From contig CAYVCQ010000001.1 in the NCBI GenBank assembly GCA_964450405.1, positions 91,858-155,857 of the forward strand: a stretch of 64,000 nucleotides of DNA, in the 5' to 3' direction. The notes below the pieces were generated by a model. The model saw only the letters and a list, made by a program, of their open reading frames with translations, made no database searches and was not told the origin of the DNA. The position numbers and the translations under genes are program-made. The number at the start of each line of letters is the position of its first letter. The first letter of the stretch is position 1. Shown one piece after another: positions 3,078-59,300 of this stretch. This DNA comes from an uncultured Leptospirales bacterium (GTDB taxonomy: Bacteria > Spirochaetota > UBA4802 > UBA5550).

Positions 3078-3489
3078 ATATTATTTCATTTCAGCAGCAC
3101 TTTCGTCCTGCTCTCCTGTATCGTGATAATTCAACAAGTATTCAACTAGTTGCATATATAAAAGCTGTTGTGATAATGTCAAGAAATTTTACGATTTTTT
3201 TAGGGGGGAAAGATTTTTGATTTTAGGCATAAATCATGATTAAGGGACTAGAGGATTTATTTGATTGAAGATAGAGTTAACAATACTGCATCATGAAAAT
3301 CTTTTAATCATGCGAATCACGATTCAGGTAGAAGATTTTATTTTATAGACAGCACCATAATACTCATTTAATTTTGTTGCCTTAACGGTTTGAGAGCTTT
3401 AAATGATCTGGTTTTAAACGGGTACCAAAATTAAAAGTCATATCAAACTCAAATCTGACAATTTGTTTTAGAGATATAAGGATATTATA

Positions 3490-4680
3490 ATGAAAAAAAT
3501 ACTTACGATAGTTCTTCTGCTGATTTCCATTTTTTTAATTGGATGCAAATCACACACACTTTCAGAAGATCTCAAGCCAATAAATTTAACAAAAAATCCT
3601 GATGCATCCCGTATGGGAGACCTTGGCTGGGCAGCTTATCAAAAGAAAGACTATGATAAAGCCTTGGAGAATTACACAAAAGCCCTGGAGTATGATCCTA
3701 GATATGTTAATGTATATAATAATCGTGGGCTTGTTTATTTAGTTTTAAAAGATTATGACAAGGCAATCTCTGATTTCAGTAAGACAATAGAAATTAATAA
3801 CGAGTTTACCTGGGGCTATATCAACAGAGGGCTATGCTATTTTAATAAAAAGGATTTTGATAAAGCCCTGATTGATTATAAAAAAACAACTGAATTTAAC
3901 CCGAAAGAATATAGAGCTTTTTATGACATCGGGCGTATTTATTATGAAAAAAAAGATTATATTAAGGCCCTTGAAAATCTCGATAAATGTCTGAAAATAT
4001 ATCCTGAACATGAGTGGTCTTTCAACTATAAAGGATTGTGTTATGACATGTTAAAGGATTACGATAAGGCTCTTGAAAATTACAATAAAGCAATTTATTT
4101 AGATTCGAAAGATGATTATGTTTATCATAATATTGGAATAGTTTATTATAAAAAGAAAGAATACAATAAAGCATTAGAATATTTCGATAAAAGTTTAAAA
4201 TTAAACCCCAACTATGTATCCGCAATTAACTTTAAAGGACTTTGTTATGGCTTTCTGAAAGATTCCGACAAAGCCTTAGAAAATTTTAATAAAGCTATTA
4301 AGATTGATTCTAAATATTTTCTGGCCTATTATAATATTGGAAGAATCTATTATGATAAAAAAGAATATTCTACTGCTTTAGAAAATTTAGATAAATGCCT
4401 GAAGTTAAATGCTGAATATGCATGGGCTTTGAACTTTAAGGGAAGGTGCTATCACAGGTTGGAAGAATTTGACATAGCCCTTGAAAATTACAATAAATCA
4501 ATCAAATTAGATCCCAAAATAGCAGATTTTTATAACTCTAGGAGTTATTCATATTTAAAGAAAAAAAATATTAAATCCGCATTGGGTGATTTAAACAAGT
4601 CACTCCAGCTTGAACCGGAAAACTACCACACACTATATGATTTTGCATGTTTCTATTCAGTGCAGAAAAACAAACCTTAA
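3490..4680 (+). CDS. TPR-repeat lipoprotein, interrupted by an in-frame TAA at 4678-4680; the frame stays open to 4848
   Basis: Lipobox LLISIFLIGCKS, then about 10 tetratricopeptide repeats (A..Y..AL..DP....Y.NRG). The same frame continues after the TAA as AFEYLAKAIDKGYSNINHMEEDKDLDNIKSDDRYKTLIAMLKEKAIKNDTGKAKN, the standard C-terminal tail of this protein family. Confidence 0.7.
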   Translation: MKKILTIVLLLISIFLIGCKSHTLSEDLKPINLTKNPDASRMGDLGWAAYQKKDYDKALENYTKALEYDPRYVNVYNNRGLVYLVLKDYDKAISDFSKTIEINNEFTWGYINRGLCYFNKKDFDKALIDYKKTTEFNPKEYRAFYDIGRIYYEKKDYIKALENLDKCLKIYPEHEWSFNYKGLCYDMLKDYDKALENYNKAIYLDSKDDYVYHNIGIVYYKKKEYNKALEYFDKSLKLNPNYVSAINFKGLCYGFLKDSDKALENFNKAIKIDSKYFLAYYNIGRIYYDKKEYSTALENLDKCLKLNAEYAWALNFKGRCYHRLEEFDIALENYNKSIKLDPKIADFYNSRSYSYLKKKNIKSALGDLNKSLQLEPENYHTLYDFACFYSVQKNKP

Positions 4681-4848: not shown

Positions 4849-5076
4849 AATAACGAACTAACTGCTTTCACCCTCCCCTAACCCCTCCCATCAAGGGAGG
4901 GGAAAAGCATCATGAAAATCCTTTAATCAAATGAATCACGGTTCAGACAAAATACAGAAACTGAAAACATCTTGAATCAACTTTTTCCACTCACGACAAT
5001 TTATTCCCTTGAAAAAGTCCTGAATTTTAAGTAAATTAAATTCCACAATATCTCACCAAATGCAGGAGCTCTATAA

Positions 5077-6660: not shown

Positions 6661-7664
6661 TTAATCCGGAGTTTGTAAAAGCTCTCGAAAGAAACCGCGG
6701 GCAGATAAATGCCGCCTTTGAATTTAACAATTCAGGTGACAGCCATGTGGAGTCATCGGAGATTTTCTCTGCACTTGCCAGGGTGATGGTTCCGTTATTC
6801 GATAAACAATTAACAGTTACCGATAATAATGTTGTCTCGATATTTAAAGGCTTACTTAAACTTCTTTCAAAAAGATTAATCGGAAACAGCAGCAGAGATA
6901 AAGAACTGGAGAATAACTTCTATAGAATCATCGATAAACATAATTCTCTGCTGTCAGAACATGGAGGGAGTTTTCTTTTAGAGGTCTTCAACGCCCTGCT
7001 GAATTTAAAAGAAAAGAAACTTTCCTCTGCCGGAAGATGGAGTGAAATTATTTCGGATCTCCCTGTTGAAATCGACCGGGATACATTCCGTAAATGCGGA
7101 TTTATCGCAGCATGGATCTGCGGAGCTGCAAGTGCCCGGGAAACAGCGGCAGAAATAATTCTGTCTGTCGATCCGGAGATTATCAGACTGATTTTTTCTA
7201 TAGAAACATTTAACAATAAAAAACCGGAAGACTTATCTGGAATAATAAATAAAAATCCATGGAGTAACCCGGTTTCTTTTCTTATAGATAAACATGAAAT
7301 ATCACCAGTTTTTAAAACAGCCGGGGGATTTACTGGATACGGATATGTTTTTCGTAGAGTACCCGCGGTATCGGCCATTCACGATATTTTTTATGCCACT
7401 GACGGAACCGATGTTTTCAGGATATATGCAGATTTCTACGGAGTCGAACTTATCCGGGACTCTGCTGTTAAACCGGAGATGATACAGCCGGGGGGAGTTA
7501 TAAACAGGTTTGTCAAAGGGCGTGACTTCGTCATTGATAAACACAGTTACCCTCTCCCCGCCGAATGGAAAAACAATATAACTTCAATTGCATTTAATGC
7601 AGATACCGTCATTTGGACACTTGCCGACAGCTACAAGATTTATATCGCCGGTGTAAGAGGTTAA
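6648..7664 (+). CDS. Hypothetical protein. Start overlaps the MoxR stop, and translation may begin at ATG 6657, which has a GGAAGGG Shine-Dalgarno.
   Basis: 338-aa ORF in an operon-like arrangement. No recognisable motif. Confidence 0.5.
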   Translation: MEGMINPEFVKALERNRGQINAAFEFNNSGDSHVESSEIFSALARVMVPLFDKQLTVTDNNVVSIFKGLLKLLSKRLIGNSSRDKELENNFYRIIDKHNSLLSEHGGSFLLEVFNALLNLKEKKLSSAGRWSEIISDLPVEIDRDTFRKCGFIAAWICGAASARETAAEIILSVDPEIIRLIFSIETFNNKKPEDLSGIINKNPWSNPVSFLIDKHEISPVFKTAGGFTGYGYVFRRVPAVSAIHDIFYATDGTDVFRIYADFYGVELIRDSAVKPEMIQPGGVINRFVKGRDFVIDKHSYPLPAEWKNNITSIAFNADTVIWTLADSYKIYIAGVRG

Positions 7665-7814
7665 TATGACCATAGAAAAATATTATACCCCGTCCCTTCG
7701 ACAAGCTCAGGGAGACATATATGTTGTCATGCTGAGCCTGTCGAAGCATACTGAAACATTGTATTTCCCGGCCGCAGCTGTGACAAAAATAAATTCCATT
7801 GAAGATTCTTCAAA

Positions 7815-9518
7815 ATGACAGATATAATAAATAAAAATGAAAGTCTTAAAGACCGGTGGCTTGCCAGATGGGATGAAGCTGTAAAACTCTGGAGCCCCTA
7901 TGTACAGCTCCGCACCCCGGTATTCTGCGAATCAGAACGGGATGAATCCATAGAGGGGCTCACCGGTTCCTTCGCGATGATAAGACTTACAGATTTCAGT
8001 GTTGTCATATCCCTGAGGCAGATCCATAATCTTCAGCTTGATGATTATGCCATTGAAATTCTTGCCCACGAAGCGGGTCATCATGTTTACTGCCCAGCTG
8101 ATCTTACAGATTCGGCGAGAATGATTGCACGGATTCAGAGAGCGATACATGGACATGAAAGCAAGGCTCCGATGATAGGAAATTTATACGGCGATCTTCT
8201 GATTAACGATAAGCTGTTCAGGGAGAACGGGCTCAGGATGGATAAAGTCTACATGGCTGTAAAGGCTGAGACCGCTGATAAATTCTGGGATTTCTACATG
8301 CGTACATACGAACTGCTCTGGTCTCTTCCGCGGCAGACTCTGACATTTTCAAAAGTTGAAGATGAAACAGAGGGTGACGCAATTCTCGCAGCAAGAGTAG
8401 TGCGGAATTTTGCAAGACACTGGCTGGACGGTGCCGCTGAGTTTGCATCAATATGTTACCGTTACCTTCTTGAATCATCCGGTCCATCTGAATATGTGAG
8501 TTCATGGATGGATGCAGTAGAACCTGGCGACGGCACTACAATACCCGCCGGAATAACAGAGATTGAAGATAGTGAACTTTCCGGCAAGGATGCTGAAGCC
8601 ATAAGAAAACTTAAAGAATCCGGCATACCATCGGGATCGCAAAGCAGACCCGGTAAAAGCTACAGGGAACCATTTGAATACGGACAGATTTTACGCGCAA
8701 TAGGGATTAACATGAGTGATGAGGAAATTGCCGTGAGATACTACACCGAGCGGGCTATTCCATATCTTATCCCGTTTCCATCTGTAAAGCAGCCTGATTC
8801 TAAAGAACCGAATCCTGAAGGTGTCACCGAGTGGGATATAAGCTCTCCCTTTGAGGATTTGAGTATGTTCGATTCACTTCTTCGAAGTCCCGTGCTTATT
8901 CCGGGATACACAACTGTCGAGAGAGTAACAGGGACATCGCCCGGCGGGGAGCCGTCCCGTGAGCCCTTTGATCTGGACATATATGTCGATTCAAGCGGAT
9001 CCATGCCCGACCCGAGGGTAAATATCTCATACCTGACTTTAGCCGGAGCGATAATCTGTCTTTCGGCACTCAGATCGGGCTCAAAGGTGCAGGCAACGCT
9101 GTGGAGTGATACAAACCAGTTTTATACAACAAAGGGTTTTGTCCGTGATAAAATGGAGATAATGAAAATACTCACCGGTTTCTTTGGCGGAGGAACCGCC
9201 TTTCCGATACATATTTTAAGAGATACATATCTTGACAGGAAAGCATCTGCCAGGAAAACCCACATACTTGTTATCTCCGATGAAGGAGTAACAACGATGT
9301 TCGATAAAGATGAAAAAGGAAACAGCGGATTTGAAATTGCAAAAACATCGCTGTTAAAATGCGGAGGCGGAGGAACTTTTGCTCTTAATATTTATTCTAT
9401 GGATAATGAACTGAATAGGGCTGAAAAGATGGGATGGAATATTTACCCGGTTACAAACTGGGATGACCTGATAGAATTCAGCAAAGATTTTGTTAAAAAG
9501 CATTACGAGGTTAAGTAG
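7815..9518 (+). CDS. HExxH metallopeptidase-like domain fused to a von Willebrand factor A domain (DUF2201_N + DUF2201/VWA architecture, a MoxR partner)
   Basis: ILAHEAGHHVY (HExxH) in the N-terminal half. The C-terminal half has a MIDAS motif DLDIYVDSSGSMPDP (DxSxS) and a downstream THILVISDEG. Confidence 0.7.
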   Translation: MTDIINKNESLKDRWLARWDEAVKLWSPYVQLRTPVFCESERDESIEGLTGSFAMIRLTDFSVVISLRQIHNLQLDDYAIEILAHEAGHHVYCPADLTDSARMIARIQRAIHGHESKAPMIGNLYGDLLINDKLFRENGLRMDKVYMAVKAETADKFWDFYMRTYELLWSLPRQTLTFSKVEDETEGDAILAARVVRNFARHWLDGAAEFASICYRYLLESSGPSEYVSSWMDAVEPGDGTTIPAGITEIEDSELSGKDAEAIRKLKESGIPSGSQSRPGKSYREPFEYGQILRAIGINMSDEEIAVRYYTERAIPYLIPFPSVKQPDSKEPNPEGVTEWDISSPFEDLSMFDSLLRSPVLIPGYTTVERVTGTSPGGEPSREPFDLDIYVDSSGSMPDPRVNISYLTLAGAIICLSALRSGSKVQATLWSDTNQFYTTKGFVRDKMEIMKILTGFFGGGTAFPIHILRDTYLDRKASARKTHILVISDEGVTTMFDKDEKGNSGFEIAKTSLLKCGGGGTFALNIYSMDNELNRAEKMGWNIYPVTNWDDLIEFSKDFVKKHYEVK

Positions 9519-11531: not shown

Positions 11532-11615
11532 TAATTCTTTACTGCTTGCAGTTAACATTGTATCAAACCATGACTCAGGCAGGAGCTTTCCCAAAAGTCT
11601 GATATTTCCGCACTT

Positions 11616-11718
11616 GTCATTCCGGTTTTGCAGCATCCATTCTTGCAAATACCGGAATCTCCTGATGGAATCAGTGGTATGAGATTCCGGCATTCCGTTT
11701 CACTACAGCCGGAATGAC
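11616..11718. repeat. Family-A palindromic intergenic element (MITE-like), copy 1 of 3
   Basis: GTCATTCCGGTTTTGCAG...CTTGCAAATACCGGAATCTCCTG...GATTCCGGCATTCCGTTTCACT.CAGCCGGAATGAC. 10-bp terminal inverted repeats GTCATTCCGG/CCGGAATGAC and two internal TTCCGG..CCGGAA hairpins. Closely similar copies at 35523..35629 and 40193..40295. Confidence 0.8.
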
Positions 11719-11790
11719 AGCGAGCGGACTTTTGTGGCAACCGATGTTTGATAAACAGTTTTTAAAATACTAGCAAACACAGGAGCATCA

Positions 11791-12460: not shown

Positions 12461-13450
12461 ATGAAACAGGGACTTGTAATAGGAAAATTTCTCCCGCTGC
12501 ACAGGGGACATGAAGCTCTTATAAGATTTGCCGCAACACAGTGTGATGAACTTATAGTTCTTCTTGGAGTAAAGAAAGAAGAACCGGTCTCCGGTCACCT
12601 GAGACTTAAATGGCTATGGGAAACTTTCAGAGATGAGCCATCGATTCATATAGAATACACCGATGATGAACTTCCCGACTCTCCGGTTTCATCAAGGGAT
12701 GTGTCGAAGGTCTGGGCCGATTATCTTGCCGACAGGTTTCCGGCGGTACGCCTTATTGTAAGCTCGGAGGAGTACGGTGAATTTTTAGCTGAGTATATGA
12801 GTATTGAGCATAGATACTTTGATGCAGAGAGAAAAGAGTTTCCCGTTTCGGGTACCGTTATACGCGAGTCACCTCACCGTTACTGGGAGTTTATTGCTGA
12901 ATCTGCGAGGGAACATTATGTAAAAAAAATATGCATCTTCGGCCCTGAGAGTACCGGAAAGAGTATACTCACGCAAAGACTTGCAGAGTATTACAACACG
13001 GTCTATGTGCCGGAAGTGGCGAGAGACATGATTGATAAAGCCGGCGGAGATGTTACAATTGATCTTATTGAAAAGATCGGTCCGGCGCACGGCAATGCAA
13101 TACTGCAGAAACTCCCGGCGGCAAACCGTTTTCTTTTTGTAGACACCGACATTGAAATAACTCGGCTTTTTTCTAATCATTATTTTCAGGCTACACCGGA
13201 GTTCCCGCTCTGGATAGAATCGGCGAACAAATTTGATCTCTATATATTTCCCGATACAGATGCTCCCTATGTCGAAGATCCTCAACGGGATTCCGAACAT
13301 ATGCGGGAAATTTTCAGAGAGAGACTACTCTCAGTTCTGGATAAAAAAAATGCAGAGTATGTTATCGTTGATGGGAACTGGGACGAAAGATTCCGTAAAG
13401 CGATCATGGCCATCGAGGAGAGATGGCCGGTGAAGCGGGATTCTAATTAA
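12461..13450 (+). CDS. nadR: NadR-type nicotinamide-nucleotide adenylyltransferase / ribosylnicotinamide kinase
   Basis: MKQGLVIGKFLPLHRGHEALI (the (H/T)xGH nucleotidyltransferase motif) plus a C-terminal P-loop kinase ICIFGPESTGKSIL. GGAGG Shine-Dalgarno before ATG 12461. The track start at 12362 is an upstream in-frame extension overlapping pnuC. Confidence 0.8.
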   Translation: MKQGLVIGKFLPLHRGHEALIRFAATQCDELIVLLGVKKEEPVSGHLRLKWLWETFRDEPSIHIEYTDDELPDSPVSSRDVSKVWADYLADRFPAVRLIVSSEEYGEFLAEYMSIEHRYFDAERKEFPVSGTVIRESPHRYWEFIAESAREHYVKKICIFGPESTGKSILTQRLAEYYNTVYVPEVARDMIDKAGGDVTIDLIEKIGPAHGNAILQKLPAANRFLFVDTDIEITRLFSNHYFQATPEFPLWIESANKFDLYIFPDTDAPYVEDPQRDSEHMREIFRERLLSVLDKKNAEYVIVDGNWDERFRKAIMAIEERWPVKRDSN

Positions 13451-13482
13451 ATAAAACGTTTACTAATTATCAATTATTCTAT

Positions 13483-14121
13483 TTAAAAAGAACGTACAGC
13501 CCGTACCGAATTATTAGATGTCTTAATACCGTTCGTCTGATTACCAATCCCAAAGCCCTGATCCCACGCATTATTTGGATTGGCAATGTCCTCAGATGAA
13601 CTCCAATAGTAGCCGGTAGTAAACCCTCCAATACCGTTAGCACCGAGGTTAACCCATATCTCATTGAGTTCATCTTTTGATGGAAGGAACCAGTCGCTCT
13701 TATTCCCTCCATGATAATCTCTGCATATTTTCGCGGCACTTGCCCCGCCGCTATTCTGGAATATTATTGCATCTGTGTTTGAAGATCCCATGCCAATCCC
13801 GGCTGGCAAAGCACTCACTCCGTTTGCAAATGCGCTGATATTCGTACTAAATGTTTGTGACACTGACAGATCCAATGTGGCCACTTCCAGTCCATGCAGC
13901 CCCCCACTCGTAACATAAAACACAATCCCGCCGCCGGGACCAGTATCTCCTATTTCCAATTTGTTCTGTGCAACCGAATACATATCCTCCCGTTCACAGG
14001 AGAAAAGTAAAAACAACGATGCAAATATCATCAGCGGGATTAATCTGCTGAAATAAATTTTTGATCTTCGGGGAGTTTTTGAAGATAAAGTTAAAAATAT
14101 ATTAAATTCTGAACTTTTCAT
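13483..14121 (-). CDS. DUF1566-like (Lcl C-terminal domain type) lipoprotein, paralogue 1
   Basis: Signal peptide with lipobox RLIPLMIFASLFLLFSC. Motifs GDTGPGGGIVFYV, SDWFLPSKDELNEIW and YWSSSE. ATG at 14121 aligns with the GTG start of paralogue 2. The track ORF extends to 14145. Confidence 0.55.
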   Translation of the reverse strand: MKSSEFNIFLTLSSKTPRRSKIYFSRLIPLMIFASLFLLFSCEREDMYSVAQNKLEIGDTGPGGGIVFYVTSGGLHGLEVATLDLSVSQTFSTNISAFANGVSALPAGIGMGSSNTDAIIFQNSGGASAAKICRDYHGGNKSDWFLPSKDELNEIWVNLGANGIGGFTTGYYWSSSEDIANPNNAWDQGFGIGNQTNGIKTSNNSVRAVRSF

Positions 14122-14235
14122 GAAATTACCGTCCATACTTAACACTTATCATATTAGAATAACAAAAATCATTTTTTTTGTCAATATTGATTTTGTTAAT
14201 TTATGGCATAAAGAGATTCCAAACATTTGTGTTAA

Positions 14236-14375
14236 GCTTTCAGAGAGAGGCTTCTTTTAGTACTGGATAAAAAAAATGCGGAGTATGTTATCGTTGATGG
14301 AGAGTGGGACGAAAGATTCAGTATATCGATAACGGCCATCGAGGTGAGATGGCCCGTGAAACACAATTAGCAGCT
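14236..14375 (+). pseudogene. Diverged duplicate of the nadR 3' end (corresponds to nadR 13312..13450), a relic of a tandem duplication
   Basis: ttcagagagag..tactggataaaaaaaatgcggagtatgttatcgttgatggagagtgggacgaaagattc..ggccatcgaggtgagatggcccgtgaa aligns with the nadR tail. It translates to LDKKNAEYVIVDGEWDERF.., versus LDKKNAEYVIVDGNWDERFRKAIMAIEERWPVKRDSN in nadR. Confidence 0.75.
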
Positions 14376-14403
14376 TTAATTAACGAATAATATTATATAA
14401 AAA

Positions 14404-15048
14404 TTAAAATTTTCGGATTGCTCGAACATTATCTGTTGCAACCTTGCCTGAAGAAGTAAGTGAACCATTAGTAAAATCTATATCGTAAGCCATAACTCCG
14501 CTCTCTGTGGAACTCCAGTATCTATAATTGCTAAAATTTCCAACACCATTATTAACATTCGATCCATTATTAACGAGATTATCCCATATAGCAGTTAATT
14601 CATTTTGTGAAGGAAGAAACCAGTCGCTCTTCTCCCCATATACTAATTGATCGCACAAAAATCCAGCACGATCTGTTTTGCTAGTAACATCCCCGGTAGC
14701 ATCATTTAAATTGCTGTTCAACCAGGCCACAATAATTGCAGTATTTGAACTCCCTGAGCCTATCCCGGAATTTGATGTGCCTATTGTTAATGATGACGAA
14801 CCCCACTGTTTACCTGCCCATTCTGTTGATACCGGCGCAACCTCCAGTCCATGAGCCCCTCCATCCGTAACATAAAAAACAATCCCGCCGCCGGGACCGG
14901 TGTCGCCTATAGCCAGCTTATGTTGTGTGAAGGAATACATATCCTCTCGCTCACAGGAGAAAAGTAAAAATAACGATGCAAATATCATCCGCGGGATCAA
15001 GCGGGTGAGATAAGAAGATTTAGATATAATTAATTCTGAACTATTCAC
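14404..15048 (-). CDS. DUF1566-like lipoprotein, paralogue 2 (tandem duplicate of 13483..14121)
   Basis: Same lipobox RLIPRMIFASLFLLFSCEREDMYS and the same motifs GDTGPGGGIVFYVT, SDWFLPSQNELTAIW and YWSSTE. The 5' 120 nt are about 85% identical to paralogue 1 at DNA level. Probable GTG start at 15048; the track ORF runs to a TTG at 15096. Confidence 0.55.
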   Translation of the reverse strand: MNSSELIISKSSYLTRLIPRMIFASLFLLFSCEREDMYSFTQHKLAIGDTGPGGGIVFYVTDGGAHGLEVAPVSTEWAGKQWGSSSLTIGTSNSGIGSGSSNTAIIVAWLNSNLNDATGDVTSKTDRAGFLCDQLVYGEKSDWFLPSQNELTAIWDNLVNNGSNVNNGVGNFSNYRYWSSTESGVMAYDIDFTNGSLTSSGKVATDNVRAIRKF

Positions 15049-15157: not shown

Positions 15158-15266
15158 CTGTCATTTCGAACCCTTCAATTATACGGGTGAGAAATCTTAT
15201 TAAACTCCAATGAATTAACTGTGCAATAAAGATTTCTCAGTCGCTATCACTTCTTCGAAATGACAG
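15158..15266. repeat. Family-D palindromic element, copy 1 of 2
   Basis: CTGTCATTTCGAACCC..GGGTGAGAAATC...GATTTCTCAGTCGC...CTTCGAAATGACAG. Terminal inverted repeats plus an internal GAGAAATC/GATTTCTC inverted repeat. Second copy at 31989..32129. Confidence 0.75.
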
Positions 15267-20415: not shown

Positions 20416-20507
20416 TATTTACACCCTATTTTTTTAAAGTTTTAATTTATAGTTAAAATGTGCAGCCATCCCTCAGTTATTTTCAAGAACTATTTTTATT
20501 ATTAGAT

Positions 20508-20611
20508 GTCTGAACCTTGATTCGCAGGATTCAGGGATTTACATGATTTAGAGAGAGTTAACTTCCGGTAAATCATGTAGATCCTTTAATCAAGTGAATC
20601 AAGGTTCAGAT
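20508..20611. repeat. Family-B element, complete copy with both terminal inverted repeats
   Basis: Left arm GTCTGAACCTTGATTCGC. Right arm GTGAATCAAGGTTCAGAT. Nested inner inverted repeat GATTTACATGATTTA/TAAATCATGTAGATC. Core AATCCTTTAATCAAGTGAATCAAGGTTCAGA. Confidence 0.8.
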
Positions 20612-20800
20612 AATTTACCGTTTGCAAAAAGTTATATTTATTCAGTCACCTGCCTGAACATGATTTCGATGATTCAAAAGATTACCATGATTAGACTATA
20701 GACCTCTTTCCACTACAGGTGAAAAAAATATATACAATGCTCTGAAAACAAAATTCAAATAAACCAGCGGGATTCCATGTATTATAAAAATTTCTCTATT

Positions 20801-20842
20801 TAATCCTGTAAATCCCTTAATCCCCGGAATCCTGTTCAGACA
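20801..20842. repeat. Family-B repeat, half copy
   Basis: aatcctgtaaatcccttaatccccggaatcctgttcagacaa. Confidence 0.7.
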
Positions 20843-20972
20843 ATTGACTTGATAAAATTTCATAAACAATAAATCTTCTTCTGTAAAAAATCAAAAAAAA
20901 AAAGGAATTTTATTGCAACAATACAATATAAAGCAGATCATAGTTAACAACTAAACAGTTGAAGGAATAAAC

Positions 20973-21626: not shown

Positions 21627-21796
21627 CACTACTTATTTTACATACATATTGTCAGAACACGATTCGTGGGATTCTATAGATTACCAAGATTAGACTACGT
21701 ACCACTTTCCTTTATAGAAATCAAAATGAGCATAGAACTCTTAGACAAAATTTTATTATTCACCAGGATTCCTTAGTTTGTAAAGAGAATCCAATT

Positions 21797-21892
21797 TAAT
21801 CGTGTAAATCCTTTAATCCCCGGAATCCTGTTCAGACAGGTGACAGAATAAATTATGAAAATTTTCAACCAGGTGAATCACGGTTCAGACAA
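21797..21892. repeat. Family-B repeats, two adjacent half copies
   Basis: taaatcctttaatccccggaatcctgttcagacagg and caaccaggtgaatcacggttcagacaattgg. Confidence 0.75.
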
Positions 21893-40139: not shown

Positions 40140-40192
40140 ATTGACGCTATCACTAAAGGGGTCTGATTTTTGATTCTTTTATTTCAGCATTT

Positions 40193-40295
40193 GTCATTCC
40201 GGTTTTGCAGCGTACATTCTTGCGAATACCGGAATCTCCTGATTAAATCTGGCGTATGGGATACCGGCATTACGTTTCACTTCAGCCGGTATGAC
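40193..40295. repeat. Family-A palindromic element, copy 3
   Basis: GTCATTCCGGTTTTGCAGCGTACATTCTTGCGAATACCGGAATCTCCTG...GATACCGGCATTACGTTTCACTTCAGCCGGTATGAC. Confidence 0.8.
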
Positions 40296-40650
40296 AGCTA
40301 GTAAACTTTTAGTTCATCCGCAAAATAGCATTCAATTTAAACCTGAAAAAAATAATTCCTAACAAAACTGGACTTAAAATATCCAACTTATGTAACAATA
40401 CACCACAGCATTTTTCATATTAAAAAATGGAGTTTAATATGAAAAATGAAAATATAAATGAAAACCCTATTCTTTCCGGAATACCTGTCGAATTTGAATG
40501 TGACGAGCCATGGAGAAAAAAAAGACTTTCGTGCTCAGGTGCGGGGATAGTTGAAAAAAATTTTGACCGAAGACATTTTGAACATATGACAAAATATCAT
40601 GGCGGAAATTCATCTGATGGAATCGAAAATGAAGAAGAATCAGGCGGGAA

Positions 40651-41424: not shown

Positions 41425-41603
41425 GGGTTTTTCCTTTTGAGTACAATAAATAATTTAAGACTGAGAGTGCAAGTAAATAGCGGATTATATTGAGATTTTT
41501 TATTCTACACTTCCAGTGTTTCGGTATGACAGCATTTCGTCCGAACCATGATTTGCATGATTTTTGGATTAGCCTGATGTTGCGGGGAAAACATTTTTGT
41601 ATT

Positions 41604-41647
41604 TAATCAAGGAAATCATTTAATCCTTGAATCAGGGTTCAGACAAC
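41604..41647. repeat. Family-B repeat, half copy
   Basis: aatcaaggaaatcatttaatccttgaatcagggttcagacaa. Confidence 0.7.
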
Positions 41648-45667: not shown

Positions 45668-45765
45668 AGCGCTCCGCGCTGTGCTAAAAATGGGGGATTA
45701 CGGGGGCGTTGCCCCCGTAATCCCCCATTTTTAGCGTATGCGAAGCATACGCACTCTCGAAAATA
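45668..45765. other. Three consecutive perfect hairpins in a 730-bp divergent intergenic region
   Basis: gcacagcgc-tcc-gcgctgtgc (9-bp stem). ctaaaaatgggggattacgggggc-gtt-gcccccgtaatcccccatttttag (24-bp perfect stem). cgtatgc-gaa-gcatacg (7-bp stem). Confidence 0.7.
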
Positions 45766-47423: not shown

Positions 47424-47764
47424 ATAGAGATGAAATGATGATTCTCAAAAATAAAACTTTTCCGGCACCTCTATCACTTCGTGACATTTCACTCATCAGC
47501 CCCCTATCCCCCGGAGGGGGCAACGAGTATATCAGTTATATCGCTGCTAGTTTTATTCTTATCATTTCTTTTACAATTCCAATACTCATCCCGAATTCAT
47601 CCCTGTATCTATCGTATTCTTTTTGTATATCATGAATTAACTAAAAATTTCCCTCTTGAGTGCCCCCTCCGGGGGACAGGGGGCCGGGGAGTACGGGAAA
47701 CAACGGGTTCTTTTCAGAAATTTTTATCTGTAAATTACTGGGTAAGGAATCCAATCCCATACCC

Positions 47765-53526: not shown

Positions 53527-55413
53527 ATGAAAAGGATAATCATCACATTTGTCACAATTATACTGGGTTCTTCTAGTATTATCTTTGGCATGGAAGTATA
53601 TGACAGTGTTACTATTTTTATTCGCTATGCGGATACAATTAAAAGTGAATGCATGTCCGGTGACTGCATAAACGGAAAAGGAGTAGCGCAGTTCGGTGAA
53701 ACAAATTTACACTACGATGGGGATTTTAAAAACGGCAGGATGGATGGAAATGGTACATTAACCAACCAGGGCTGGTCATATACCGGCCAGTGGGAAAAGG
53801 GACTTATGCATGGCCAAGGCATTCTAACTTATGAAGATGGGAAAACTGATGAAGGCAGCTTTCTTATGGGAAGGTACACAGGAAAATGTGAAACGGGCGA
53901 TTGTAATAGCGGTAAAGGTACACTCACCTGGGCTGATGGCAAGAAGTATGAAGGTTATGTAAAAGATGGCATGATGGATGGAACCGGTACATTAACATGG
54001 GATATTTTAATGTACCCCAAGGGTGCAATAATATATACAGGTCAGTTTACAAAAGGCCTGCGTAACGGACAGGGAACAATGACTGATCCCAACAATACCT
54101 ATAATGGCCAATGGAAAGATGATAGTAAGAATGGCCTGGGAACATTAGAAAGTTCAGGGTATACCTATAAGGGGGAATGGAAAGATAACATGATGCACGG
54201 ACAGGGAGTAATGTTATACTCTGACGGCAGCAGGGATCAGGGACGCTTTGTTAAAGGCAGATATACAGGTAAATGTGAAGCAGGTGACTGTAAAAACGGC
54301 AAAGGCACACTTACGTGGGCCACTGGTGGAAAATATACCGGTGAAATTAAAGACGGCATGATGAATGGAACAGGTACTTTTATCTGTAATAATTATACCT
54401 ATACCGGTCAGTTCAGGGATGGCCTCATACACGGCAAGGGTAAATTCATTGGCAAGAAAAATGATATAGTTATGCCAGTTGAAGCGAAATACGATGGAGA
54501 GTGGAAAGAGGGTGTACTGGTAAAGGCCACAGGAACCATTACAAACTACGCTGGAACTTATACAGGTGAATTTAAAAATGGAAAAATAAACGGAAAAGGA
54601 ACAATGATTTTCAAAAACGGTTCCAGCTATAAAGGACAGTGGGAAAACGAAAAAATGCACGGTGAAGGTGTTTATAAATATGCCGATGGCAAAACCGATT
54701 CAGGAAATTTTAAAAACGACAGATTCCTTGGCAAGTGCATATCCGGCAACTGTACTAACGGCAAAGGCACGGCAATCTGGTCAGACGGTTCTAAGTATAC
54801 AGGTGAATTTATAGAAGGAGAAAAACGCGGTCAGGGCATAATGATTAATGCTGACGGCAGCAAATATGTGGGTGAATTTTTCGGTGGTCAATACTACGGC
54901 AAGGGAACACTTACAGAAAAAGATGGTACAGTTAAAACAGGACTTTTTTCTTTAGGTGATTATGATGGCAATTGTAAAAAGGGTGACTGTGAAAACGGTT
55001 ATGGTGAATTTGATTATGCGGACGGCACATCCTATAAGGGTGAATGGAAAGACGGACACTATAACGGTAACGGCACATATAAAGGTAATGAATCAAAAGA
55101 TAATGATCCCGAAGAGGATTACGACGACGGTATGCATCATATTTATTACAATAACAGTACATATATTGGCCAGTGGAAAGACGGACAGAAAGATGGTGAA
55201 GGACTTTACACAGGTTCAGGCGGTGATACATATGACGGTCAATGGAAGAATGACAAAAAGAATGGCAAGGGCACAATGGAATGGACTGACGGTTATAAGT
55301 ACATCGGTGATTGGAAAGATGACAAGCAAGATGGTCTGGGAATTTTTTATAATTATGACGGGACAATATCCCAGCAGGGCCGCTGGAAAGATGGTAAATT
55401 CATCGGAGAATAA
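53527..55413 (+). CDS. MORN-repeat protein (628 aa) built from repeated CxxGDCxNGKG / GxYxGxWKDxxxxGxG modules
   Basis: N-terminal TM/signal. At least 20 MORN-like units (YTGQWEKGLMHGQG, YEGYVKDGMMDGTG, ...). Seven recurrences of GKC(E/I)(T/S)GDC(N/K)(S/N)GKGT. Confidence 0.7.
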   Translation: MKRIIITFVTIILGSSSIIFGMEVYDSVTIFIRYADTIKSECMSGDCINGKGVAQFGETNLHYDGDFKNGRMDGNGTLTNQGWSYTGQWEKGLMHGQGILTYEDGKTDEGSFLMGRYTGKCETGDCNSGKGTLTWADGKKYEGYVKDGMMDGTGTLTWDILMYPKGAIIYTGQFTKGLRNGQGTMTDPNNTYNGQWKDDSKNGLGTLESSGYTYKGEWKDNMMHGQGVMLYSDGSRDQGRFVKGRYTGKCEAGDCKNGKGTLTWATGGKYTGEIKDGMMNGTGTFICNNYTYTGQFRDGLIHGKGKFIGKKNDIVMPVEAKYDGEWKEGVLVKATGTITNYAGTYTGEFKNGKINGKGTMIFKNGSSYKGQWENEKMHGEGVYKYADGKTDSGNFKNDRFLGKCISGNCTNGKGTAIWSDGSKYTGEFIEGEKRGQGIMINADGSKYVGEFFGGQYYGKGTLTEKDGTVKTGLFSLGDYDGNCKKGDCENGYGEFDYADGTSYKGEWKDGHYNGNGTYKGNESKDNDPEEDYDDGMHHIYYNNSTYIGQWKDGQKDGEGLYTGSGGDTYDGQWKNDKKNGKGTMEWTDGYKYIGDWKDDKQDGLGIFYNYDGTISQQGRWKDGKFIGE

Positions 55414-55425
55414 CCCGATGTAAAG

Positions 55426-55832
55426 ATGTACCACATAAAGGAGTTACTGATCATTTTAATAATGCTAATCTTGGGCTATTCTGCAGTAATTTTTGACCAC
55501 AATCTTGAAAGCGATGAATCTCAACTCATCTCAGAACTACAGTTTCCTGATGCTCAATGTACATCAGGAAACTGTATCAACGGACAGGGAGTCAAGCTGT
55601 TCGGTTACACTGGCAATGCAGGCAACAGGCAATTCGACCGTGTAAAGTATGAAGGTGAATTCAAAAACAGCATGATTCATGGAATCGGAACATTGACCAC
55701 AGCTGACCGCACGTTTATGGGTGCATGGAAGGATGACATGATGCACAGACAGGGTACGATGGTTTAATCGACGGCAGTAAAAATGAAGGACTCTTTGTGA
55801 TAGGAAGGTACTGCGGTAGATACGCTTATTAA
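55426..55832 (+). pseudogene. Truncated MORN-repeat paralogue with a -1 frameshift near 55755
   Basis: Frame 1 ends ...AWKDDMMHRQGTMV*. Frame 3 continues YDGLIDGSKNEGLFVIGRYCGRYAY*, which matches the downstream module of the neighbouring gene (..SDGSRDQGRFVKGRYTGKC..). Confidence 0.55.
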
Positions 55833-58163: not shown

Positions 58164-58250
58164 TTTTTTATTTAGAGTAACAAATGATCCTTCTAAGCAA
58201 TAAAGAGAGATAAATACCTGAAAGCTTCCCATTTTGCATAATTAATTTTT

Positions 58251-58291
58251 GTCTGAACCATGATTCGTATGATTGAAGGATTAAATGATTT
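58251..58291. repeat. Family-B repeat, half copy in reverse orientation
   Basis: gtctgaaccatgattcgtatgattgaaggattaaatgattt. Confidence 0.7.
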
Positions 58292-58449
58292 AGTCGTGTG
58301 ACAGCAGTCTTTATCAAGAAAATATTTTAATTCTTACACAGATAAATTCATTAATATTCTTGAGTCAATATTACCAACATCTACTGTAATTAAATTTAAC
58401 CATAATAATAATTTATAATCAAACATCAAATCTGCAGTTCAGTATTCTT

Positions 58450-59053: not shown

Positions 59054-59267
59054 AAGACTCACCTTGTAAAAAGTCGTATTCATTATTTTAAAAAACAATG
59101 CTATACTATTAATGTCTATAATTTAAGCATCTATACTTTATTCTGTCCATAAAAAAACATGTTCCAAGCTTTAATTCGCTTGATTGAAGGTCTTTCATGA
59201 TACATGACTGAAATCACCTGATTTTTGAATTAACATGACAGAATTACAAATTCTATCTTCAATCAGG

Positions 59268-59300
59268 AAAATCCTTTAATCCCTTAATCATGGTTCAGAC
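59268..59300. repeat. Family-B repeat, half copy
   Basis: aaaatcctttaatcccttaatcatggttcagac. Confidence 0.7.

Follow-up and report, generated by a model that had tools for sequence, protein, structure and literature searches.

Family A, a long-loop family of head-to-head, GTC-tagged hairpin dimers in an uncultured Leptospirales bacterium, predicted to be targets of Ssn-type nucleases

Described hairpin classes and family A

Repetitive extragenic palindromes (REPs) of bacteria have been sorted into two superfamilies, GTAG-tagged and CGTC-tagged (Di Nocera, De Gregorio & Rocco, 2013; PMC3733652). We analyzed a 64,000-nucleotide stretch of contig CAYVCQ010000001.1 from an uncultured Leptospirales bacterium (the window, to which all positions refer unless another sequence is named) that carries three copies of a dispersed repeat, family A. 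In each copy, two different REP-type hairpins with GTC tags (H1 and H2) form a head-to-head heterodimer, tags outward, within a unit of about 175 nt. By analogy with the described systems, we predict with a probability of about 0.6 that these dimers are made of CGTC/TGTC-tagged REP/Ssn-related-motif (SRM) hairpins and are single-stranded DNA (ssDNA) targets of an Ssn GIY-YIG nuclease.

In the CGTC class the tag is often TGTC (CCTC is tolerated), the stem of 8-9 bp almost always begins with a complementary A and T, the tail is 3 nt long with the consensus CCA, and the loop comprises 4-5 nt, with exceptions listed. Dimers with the tags outside predominate, their spacers measure 20-100 bp, and heterodimers are frequent. 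Members occur in five phyla including Spirochaetes, and the strain list includes Turneriella parva, one of the Leptospirales. The four families recognized (CGTC-1 to CGTC-4) include dRS3 of Neisseria and RPE-4 and RPE-6 of Rickettsia. Unlike the GTAG class, CGTC repeats have no associated transposase, and none of the tyrosine transposase genes examined in CGTC-positive species is flanked by them (PMC3733652).

The second relevant system is the Neisseria NTS (CGTCATTCCCGCGMAVGCGGGAATCYRG), which contains dRS3; SsnA, a small nuclease of the GIY-YIG type, binds and cuts it only as ssDNA and does not bind RNA (Chenal et al., 2025; PMC11893778). Cutting depends on the three bases that precede the palindrome and binding above all on the C directly after it, and two oligonucleotides, each with half of the stem, suffice. 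Such motifs lie near 71% of ssn homologues and flank 42% of them on either side, and the Neisseria Ssn system lowers the integration of transforming DNA (PMC11893778).

Family A has in common with CGTC REPs an unpaired (C/T)GTC tag, an 8-bp stem with A-T and T-A as first pairs, and a short unpaired tail. Also shared are the arrangement as head-to-head heterodimers with spacers in the range of the class (23-26 nt in the three window copies), the intergenic location and a host among the Spirochaetes. The determinants known from NTS and SRMs (GTC before the palindrome, a palindrome that begins with AT, and a C directly after it) are all present and invariant, and the base of H1, ATTCC...GGAAT, is the base of the NTS.

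Family A differs from CGTC REPs in its loops, which at 16-24 nt lie outside the 4-5 nt of the class definition; longer loops are known for CGTC-1 of Bradyrhizobium and for two hosts of CGTC-3. In addition, the dimer of family A is part of a larger unit that has complementary arms on the outside and a hairpin in the spacer, and about 40% of the copies stand between divergent genes, whereas the class is found mostly downstream of genes. As judged from their sequences, the repeats carry the structural and functional determinants of the class and fall outside two narrow definitions, those of loop length and of the published SRM pattern. Family A is a new, long-loop and arm-bearing family of a known hairpin class and not a new kind of element.

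Copies, hairpin anatomy and conservation of the unit

The cores of the three copies lie at 11616-11718, 35524-35630 and 40193-40295. All three had been recognized in the original prediction, which placed the second one base off (35523-35629) and estimated the copies to be 80-85% identical, in agreement with the mean column identity of 82% over the cores plus 20-nt flanks. It also correctly described all copies as intergenic and named as neighbors PaaK-like, rsmA, MCP and PNPOx-like genes, which Pfam bears out. The genes around copy 1 encode a weakly matching AMP-binding/PaaK-like protein and a nicotinamide mononucleotide transporter (pnuC), those around copy 2 RrnaAD (rsmA) and a methyl-accepting chemotaxis protein (MCP), and those around copy 3 an ABC ATPase and a protein of the PNPOx type. 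The flanks of the copies are mutually unrelated.

With up to one mismatch, GTCATTCCGG occurs 14 times in the window against 2.9 expected, and none of 100 shuffled sequences reached 14. A tolerant detector identified 11 hairpins of the form GTC-AT...AT-C in the window versus 1.8 in shuffled sequences (maximum 5), and 10 of these pair into five dimers, three of family A and two of a sister family C. A profile built for nhmmer from related units in metagenome-assembled genomes (MAGs) of Spirochaetota together with the three window copies themselves recovers copy 1 (envelope 11576-11756, E = 7e-50), copy 3 (E = 3e-46) and copy 2 (35489-35663, E = 6e-33), and no fourth copy in the window. Coordinates are collected in Table 1.

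Table 1. Positions of family A units, their hairpins and family C dimers in the window (L116 and L117 are metagenome contigs of relatives)
Feature	Position	Strand	Description
Copy 1, full unit	11571..11746	+	Left arm, H1, spacer hairpin, H2, right arm
Copy 1, H1	11616..11659	+	GTC tag, 8-bp stem ATTCCGGT/ACCGGAAT, inner stem TTTGCA/TGCAAA, 1-nt bulge, C directly after palindrome
Copy 1, spacer hairpin	11662..11674		CTGAT-GGA-ATCAG, between H1 and H2
Copy 1, H2	11683..11718	-	GTC-ATTCCGGC...GCCGGAAT-C, 16-nt loop, tag on minus strand
Copy 2, full unit	35495..35669	+	Exact 175-nt block absent from rsmA-MCP spacer of L116 and L117; most decayed arms of the three
Copy 2, H1	35524..35567	+	
Copy 2, H2	35594..35630	-	
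Copy 3, full unit	40153..40332	+	nhmmer envelope; absent from syntenic spacer of L116
Copy 3, H1	40193..40236	+	
Copy 3, H2	40260..40295	-	Compensated stem ATACCGGC/GCCGGTAT
Family C dimer, copy 1	15160..15264		GTC-ATTTC...GAAAT-C, spacer, inverted hairpin ending GAAATGAC
Family C dimer, copy 2	32002..32127		Same GTC-AT grammar as family A

Every core contains four half-sites in the order ATTCCGG, CCGGAAT, ATTCCGG, CCGGAAT, and can be drawn as two side-by-side hairpins or as one long nested hairpin. We favor the side-by-side arrangement because the eighth stem pair is T-A in H1 and C-G in H2, and because the third pair of H2 has changed on both sides (T-A to A-T) with H1 unchanged. This compensatory change is present in copy 3 and in 11 related copies; across 14 copies the H2 pair 108/136 is A-U in 12, U-A in 2 and unpaired in none. 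Overall, 99-100% of hairpin positions are paired over the 14 copies (100% in helix 2 of H1). The terminal inverted repeats and two internal hairpins reported in the original prediction do exist as repeats, but they form one structure, in which the four half-sites are the stems of the adjacent H1 and H2. What had been taken for a transposon terminal repeat, GTCATTCCGG, is the tag plus the 5' stem half of each REP-type hairpin, and the unit runs past it.

All six hairpins of the window follow the scheme GTC-AT...AT-C, with 8-bp stems and tags facing outward. H1 reads GTC-ATTCCGGT-(inner stem TTTGCA/TGCAAA plus loop)-ACCGGAAT-C and H2, on the other strand, GTC-AT(T/A)CCGGC-(16-nt loop)-GCCGG(A/T)AT-C. 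The loop of H1 measures 24 nt, including the inner 6-bp stem, and that of H2 16-17 nt. Directly before GTC stands T, A and T in H1 of copies 1 to 3, and T, C and T on the minus strand in H2. The tails after the stem are CTC in all three H1 and CTC, CAC and CCC(A) in H2, with C always first. The small hairpin in the spacer of copy 1 is conserved as CCTGATT-A-AATCAGG in the copies of a Leptospirales MAG and is lost in copy 2.

The repeated unit is about 175-181 nt long and not about 105 bp as first proposed, since some 35-40 nt more are present on each side as partly decayed arms. The bounds of copy 1 were set by the flanks that it has in common with the orthologous spacer of a related contig, L199 (TCAAACCA ends at 11570 and TTTGATAAACAG begins at 11747), and its outer arms (11582 GGAGCTTTCCCAAAAGTC and GGACTTTTGTGGCAACC 11742) are mutually complementary and still recognizable. 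The arms are less well retained in copy 3, and very little of them remains in copy 2. Related units in Spirochaetota MAGs are sharply bounded at 163 nt, with outer arms that pair over about 15-17 bp (left GGGGCTGTCYCAAAAGT..., right ...ACTTTTTGGACAGCCCC).

Conservation is very uneven along the unit. Among the three window copies, which were not picked by the pattern used for the scan described below, identity is 1.00 in the tag and stems of H1 and 0.93-0.94 in those of H2, versus 0.74-0.82 in the loops, 0.49 in the spacer and 0.32-0.38 in the arms. GTC is invariant in both hairpins of all 14 aligned copies (in copies from outside the window it was fixed by the search pattern in H1 and not in H2). 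The arms lie within the inserted block, so uniform neutral decay cannot yield this contrast between stems and arms. The comparison of copies thus suggests that the hairpins are either kept by selection as binding sites or homogenized between copies.

Strong predicted folds on both strands (z-scores of -2.3 to -8.0 as RNA, and of -5.4 and -7.3 as DNA for full units), the one compensatory pair in H2 and the proposal that REPs of other bacteria act in transcripts would be compatible with a role as RNA, either as a repeated small RNA gene or as a cis element, such as a terminator or mRNA stabilizer, co-transcribed with its neighbors. The symmetry of the unit folds equally on either strand, however, as expected for a palindrome that acts at the DNA level. 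Rfam gave nothing relevant for the window at the gathering threshold or, at E <= 1, for six loci with a full unit among them; there is no terminator-like site in or beside any copy, and promoter-like matches are at chance level. The copies show no preference for orientation or context (of 15, about 6 lie between divergent, 3 between convergent and 4 between co-directional genes), and the characterized partner enzyme of the class does not bind RNA (PMC11893778). The structured RNA-coding repeat of the original prediction thus gained no support, and we regard an RNA role as very improbable.

Family C shares the hairpin grammar of family A, and the earlier hint that families starting with GTCAT are mobilized by a common enzyme fits our results, because GTC-AT...AT-C is common to them. 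Two short GTC-tagged hairpins of another type, CCCTTCGACAAGCTCAGGGAGAC and GTCATGCTGAGCCTGTCGAAGCAT, with the common loop GAGCYTGTCGA, occupy 7688-7750, directly upstream of an open reading frame (ORF) that starts at 7815.

Gain, loss and distribution of the unit

The metagenome contigs L116 and L117, whose rsmA genes are 85% and 81% identical to that of the window, are collinear with it over 32.3-45.2 kb and 33.2-39.0 kb, respectively. Both lack copy 2 in the spacer between rsmA and the MCP gene: homology ends at 35494 and restarts at 35670, and 175 nt in the window correspond to 7 nt in the relatives. These 7 nt are without a window counterpart (TCCGGTT in L116 9334-9360 and TCCGGAT in L117 3426-3452, in locus orientation), and in L117 they contribute to a 10-nt palindrome, AATCCGGATT. 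No family A match was found in L120-L122, more distant contigs that align to both rsmA and the MCP gene. Copy 3 is absent from the syntenic spacer of L116, where divergence is too high for exact junctions. In a 4.95-Mb relative (OW818666.1, L198), the PaaK-like/pnuC spacer orthologous to that of copy 1 contains no such element, and in the same spacer of L199 a family C dimer stands where the window has copy 1.

Copy 1 interrupts short-read assemblies of the same organism (SRR13723393, SRR13723396 and SRR13723397) from either side (L001 stops at window position 11643, and L196 and L197 start at about 11690), as a multi-copy repeat is expected to do. At 17435-18523 of L198, 7 kb from the empty copy 1 site, lies a transposase gene of the IS110 family (DEDD_Tnp_IS110 plus Transposase_20); relatives of IS110 target REP and dRS3 hairpins in other bacteria.

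The direct target-site duplications for which the original prediction proposed a search were found neither at the 35495/35669 junctions of the filled and empty copy 2 site nor in 11 bounded copies. The flanks of several copies are instead inverted relative to each other (TATC/GATA twice, and AAAAT/ATTTT). The family A unit is gained and lost as a discrete block without target duplication. Family A units are also mosaic, because insertions and deletions interrupt several of them. Two copies in the Spirochaetota MAG CTOTU18388 (L007 628-719, and L058) share an insertion of about 90 nt of small hairpins that takes the place of the 5' half of H2, one copy (L082) has lost H2, and another (L023) has an insertion in the spacer.

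These features invite comparison with miniature inverted-repeat transposable elements, or MITEs, derived from DDE elements, such as Correia/NEMIS, which resemble family A in small size, terminal complementarity, intergenic dispersal and presence/absence polymorphism. Under this explanation, the unit would be a deletion derivative of an insertion sequence (IS), mobilized in trans by a DDE transposase acting at the outer arms (GGGGCTGTCYCAAAAGT... / ...ACTTTTTGGACAGCCCC), with the hairpins as passengers. The sharply bounded 163-nt unit with its 17-nt complementary ends in related genomes would fit, as would the discrete 175-nt insertion or deletion at copy 2 and the report that Spirochaetes are rich in candidate MITEs. 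Family A differs in that it lacks a target-site duplication, both in the 11 copies and at the filled-versus-empty site. In addition, the supposed recognition ends are its least conserved part (0.32-0.38) while the passenger hairpins are nearly invariant, and the same dimers occur in other phyla without the arms. No longer element with GGGGCTGTC arm ends was identified in the window or the loci examined, where matches to the outer arms re-found only the units themselves, and a blastn search of 72,556 plasmids with the full unit was negative. The full-length IS with the same terminal repeats that the original prediction had envisaged was thus found in none of these collections. Its description of family A as a non-autonomous, MITE-like element holds insofar as the repeat is dispersed, non-coding and palindromic and comes and goes as a unit; mobilization by an IS through terminal inverted repeats is unlikely.

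The hairpins extend far beyond the Spirochaetota. We scanned one genome per species with the pattern GTCATTCCGG-N(20-32)-CCGGAATCTCC and obtained at least 114 stretches, against about 3-4 expected by our own chance estimate. Hosts among the matches listed, to which the counts in this paragraph also refer, are Bradyrhizobium, Rhodopseudomonas, Tardiphaga, Afipia, Cytophagales, Cyclobacteriaceae, Bacteroidales, Fibrobacter, Melioribacteraceae, Ignavibacteriaceae, KSB1, Calditrichaceae, Gemmatimonadota and Omnitrophota, together with five Spirochaetota/Leptospirales MAGs, one Leptospirales MAG contributing 8-9 loci. The interiors vary (101 distinct sequences in 119 hairpins), and the stem is exactly 8 bp long in 105 of the 119. 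Head-to-head arrangement predominates (62 hairpins, versus 6 tail-to-tail, 7 head-to-tail and 45 single). Among 78 partner hairpins found without a requirement for the tag, GAC follows in 45, G (the post-palindrome C in the partner's own orientation) precedes in 50, and the palindrome starts with AT in 49.

The hairpin base GTC-ATTCCGG...CCGGAAT-CTCC therefore recurs in many phyla, mostly as head-to-head dimers, which outside the Spirochaetota occur without the outer arms of family A. Units that can be aligned to family A over most of the core were found outside the Spirochaetota in a Cytophagia MAG, Melioribacteraceae, Ca. Zapsychrus and KSB1. The same pattern gave no match in a collection of viral contigs, and so no sign of carriage by phages, and literature matches to the raw 10-mers were primer coincidences only.

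Only three copies are visible in the window, as would also be the case for a local segmental duplication or a chance similarity without any dispersed family. Homologous units are nevertheless present in at least five other Spirochaetota MAGs and related dimers in other phyla, the flanks differ between copies, and the orthologous sites are empty in relatives; chance is excluded by the shuffle counts, the nhmmer E-values and the hairpin detector. We give this explanation almost no weight. The original prediction, which preferred a dispersed family to a local duplication, is borne out by the further copies in other MAGs, by the absence of copies 2 and 3 from syntenic sites of relatives, and by the absence or replacement of copy 1.

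Candidate nuclease, other window repeats and significance

We identified only three ORFs of the GIY-YIG family (PF01541) in the scanned loci. Two of them, in a member of the Cyclobacteriaceae (L025) and a member of the Bacteroidia (L029), both Bacteroidota, are single-domain genes bracketed on both sides by tagged hairpin dimers. L025 additionally carries the canonical CGTCATTCCCGCGCAGGCGGGAATCC, and the flanking hairpin of L029, GTCATTCCGGA-(35 nt)-TCCGGAATCTCC, is a long-loop form with a base almost identical to that of H1. The third, in Spirochaetia bacterium UBA5763 (L066), is a YhbQ/UPF0213-like gene that is not bracketed by tagged hairpins. Immediately after this gene (locus positions 7400-8000) comes a tandem array whose repeats, about 120 nt long, contain hairpins and lack the GTC tag. 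A large protein search for the GIY-YIG family returned at least 7,979 clusters at E <= 1e-5 among the best 8,000 scored. One Leptospirales MAG with family A encodes dimers of the canonical short hairpin GTCATTCCCGCGCAGGCGGGAATCC with a very long-loop ATTCCGG hairpin; short and long loops thus coexist on the same stem base. Apart from the GIY-YIG genes, the ORFs bracketed by hairpins are housekeeping genes, and no transposase-like small ORF adjoins a copy in the window, where ORFs are annotated in part, or among the 15 copies analyzed.

Based on published work on the class, we infer that the hairpins of family A may serve as binding and nicking sites of an Ssn nuclease. When the DNA is single-stranded, during replication, repair or as incoming DNA, each hairpin would fold and present the GTC tag, the A-T and T-A pairs of the stem base and the post-stem C. 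Another locus of the genome would encode the enzyme, a small GIY-YIG nuclease of the Ssn family with a single domain, which would bind the folded hairpin and nick the strand with the tag, a few nucleotides 5' of GTC. Loop length is expected to be immaterial to cutting, because the Neisseria enzyme cuts even with each half of the stem on an oligonucleotide of its own. The unit behaves as a non-autonomous repeat that spreads and is lost, and might be copied by Ssn or by another enzyme.

Several observations weigh against this assignment. The tail of family A, CTC(C), matches the CCA consensus of CGTC REPs only approximately and is not the CYRG consensus. The published SRM pattern, HGTCWYN(0-2)YYVSBRHN(0-5)WNVSBRGN(0-2)RNCYNB, has no match in the window and none in 112 kb of spirochaete loci (our implementation was checked on the Neisseria NTS, which matches); it fails because the loops of family A are 16-24 nt long, versus the 0-5 nt allowed at the center of the pattern. 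Unlike the Neisseria system, in which the partner enzyme is characterized, the enzyme partnership of family A is deduced, as no GIY-YIG or Ssn-like ORF was found in the 64-kb window or in the loci of close relatives examined (jackhmmer and a profile of 120 sequences were run on every ORF of 40 or more amino acids in the window and about 200 loci). The role of the Neisseria system in limiting the integration of transforming DNA is without a known counterpart in Spirochaetota. The L025 and L029 proteins match Pfam GIY-YIG and, weakly, UPF0213 structures, and searches of NCBIfam and PDB did not sort them into a subfamily (that of Ssn is cd10448). Gene conversion or survivorship bias, rather than selection, could underlie the contrast in conservation; survivorship bias inflates the contrast between stems and arms and cannot create it within a single copy. 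Finally, cuts are predicted immediately beyond the ends of the roughly 105-nt core, and the moving unit has about 35 nt more per side, so that cutting by Ssn alone does not explain mobilization.

The architecture of family A also resembles that of REPINs, inverted REP doublets that are the unit of duplication and leave no target duplication (Bertels & Rainey, 2011; PMC3116915). In both cases a hairpin presumed to be ssDNA would be recognized by a small single-copy enzyme. As a REPIN, family A would be copied via ssDNA by a Y1 (HUH) transposase present once per genome, either a REP-associated tyrosine transposase (RAYT) or a terminal-inverted-repeat (TIR)-associated variant. In line with this, family A consists of two inverted REP hairpins with a spacer, measures about 100-180 nt in total, leaves target sites unduplicated and is dispersed in many copies between genes. 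The tag is nevertheless (C/T)GTC and not the GTAG of RAYT-linked REPs, and the enzymes differ in class (HUH-Y1 versus GIY-YIG). The small enzyme genes bracketed by hairpins in the loci examined are GIY-YIG only, although no search was aimed at Y1 genes. In CGTC-positive species, no tyrosine transposase genes flanked by CGTC repeats were found, and the outer arm GGGGCTGT does not fit the GGGGWSAS motif of TIR-associated enzymes (PMC3733652). REPIN families are, moreover, lineage-specific and vertically inherited, whereas the hairpin base of family A is shared across phyla. A REPIN of the RAYT type is therefore distinctly unlikely.

A bolder extension of the Ssn assignment is that the 175-nt unit with its four helices (outer stem, H1, spacer hairpin and H2) might be a self-contained non-autonomous mobile element, with copying started by Ssn-type nicking of its hairpins in ssDNA, that spreads between phyla and whose hairpins are kept because the host uses them too. 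Near-identical hairpin bases were found in Spirochaetota, Bacteroidota, Ignavibacteriota, KSB1 and Omnitrophota. We consider this extension doubtful; if true, the pair of Ssn and hairpin would be a transposon-like system whose mechanism differs from DDE, serine, tyrosine and HUH transposition.

The window contains other repeats. An unrelated dispersed family with AATCATG... / ...GGTTCAGAC motifs is present at 3232-3336, 4909-4955, 20504-20613, 20765-20865, 21761-21892, 41535-41646, 58247-58295 and 59239-59295, and includes a near-perfect palindrome of 51 + 51 nt (20509-20610). A perfect 25-nt inverted repeat with a 3-nt loop (GCTAAAAATGGGGGATTACGGGGGC...) lies at 45683-45735, and a G+C-rich inverted pair of 32 nt with 138 nt between its halves at 47491-47692. 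Segments 13284-14056 and 14210-15013 are tandem paralogs, 77-83% identical over the aligned stretches, and are probably two adjacent copies of one gene; in contig L196, two PF07603 (Lcl_C) genes lie side by side about 1-2.6 kb downstream of pnuC, and by converted coordinates they correspond to the region 13284-15013. Coding repeats comprise about ten MORN-like units and seven TPR-like units spaced by 102 nt (53710-55770 and 3661-4521, respectively). A tRNA gene is encoded at 30929-31001 on the minus strand.

The hairpin class to which family A belongs was described in 2013 under the name of CGTC-tagged REPs and a second time, in 2025, as Ssn-related motifs. What family A adds is a group with long loops and outer arms, from uncultured Spirochaetota, that escapes the published motif pattern, and censuses built on this pattern consequently undercount such repeats. 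The comparison of filled and empty orthologous sites shows that about 175 nt, with a hairpin dimer inside, move as one block and leave no target duplication, which bears on how these repeats multiply. Nearly invariant tags and stems beside decayed arms suggest that each copy is kept functional as a predicted protein-binding site. If an Ssn gene bracketed by family A hairpins is present in the source genome, it would provide a test case for the specificity of Ssn enzymes toward hairpins with long loops.

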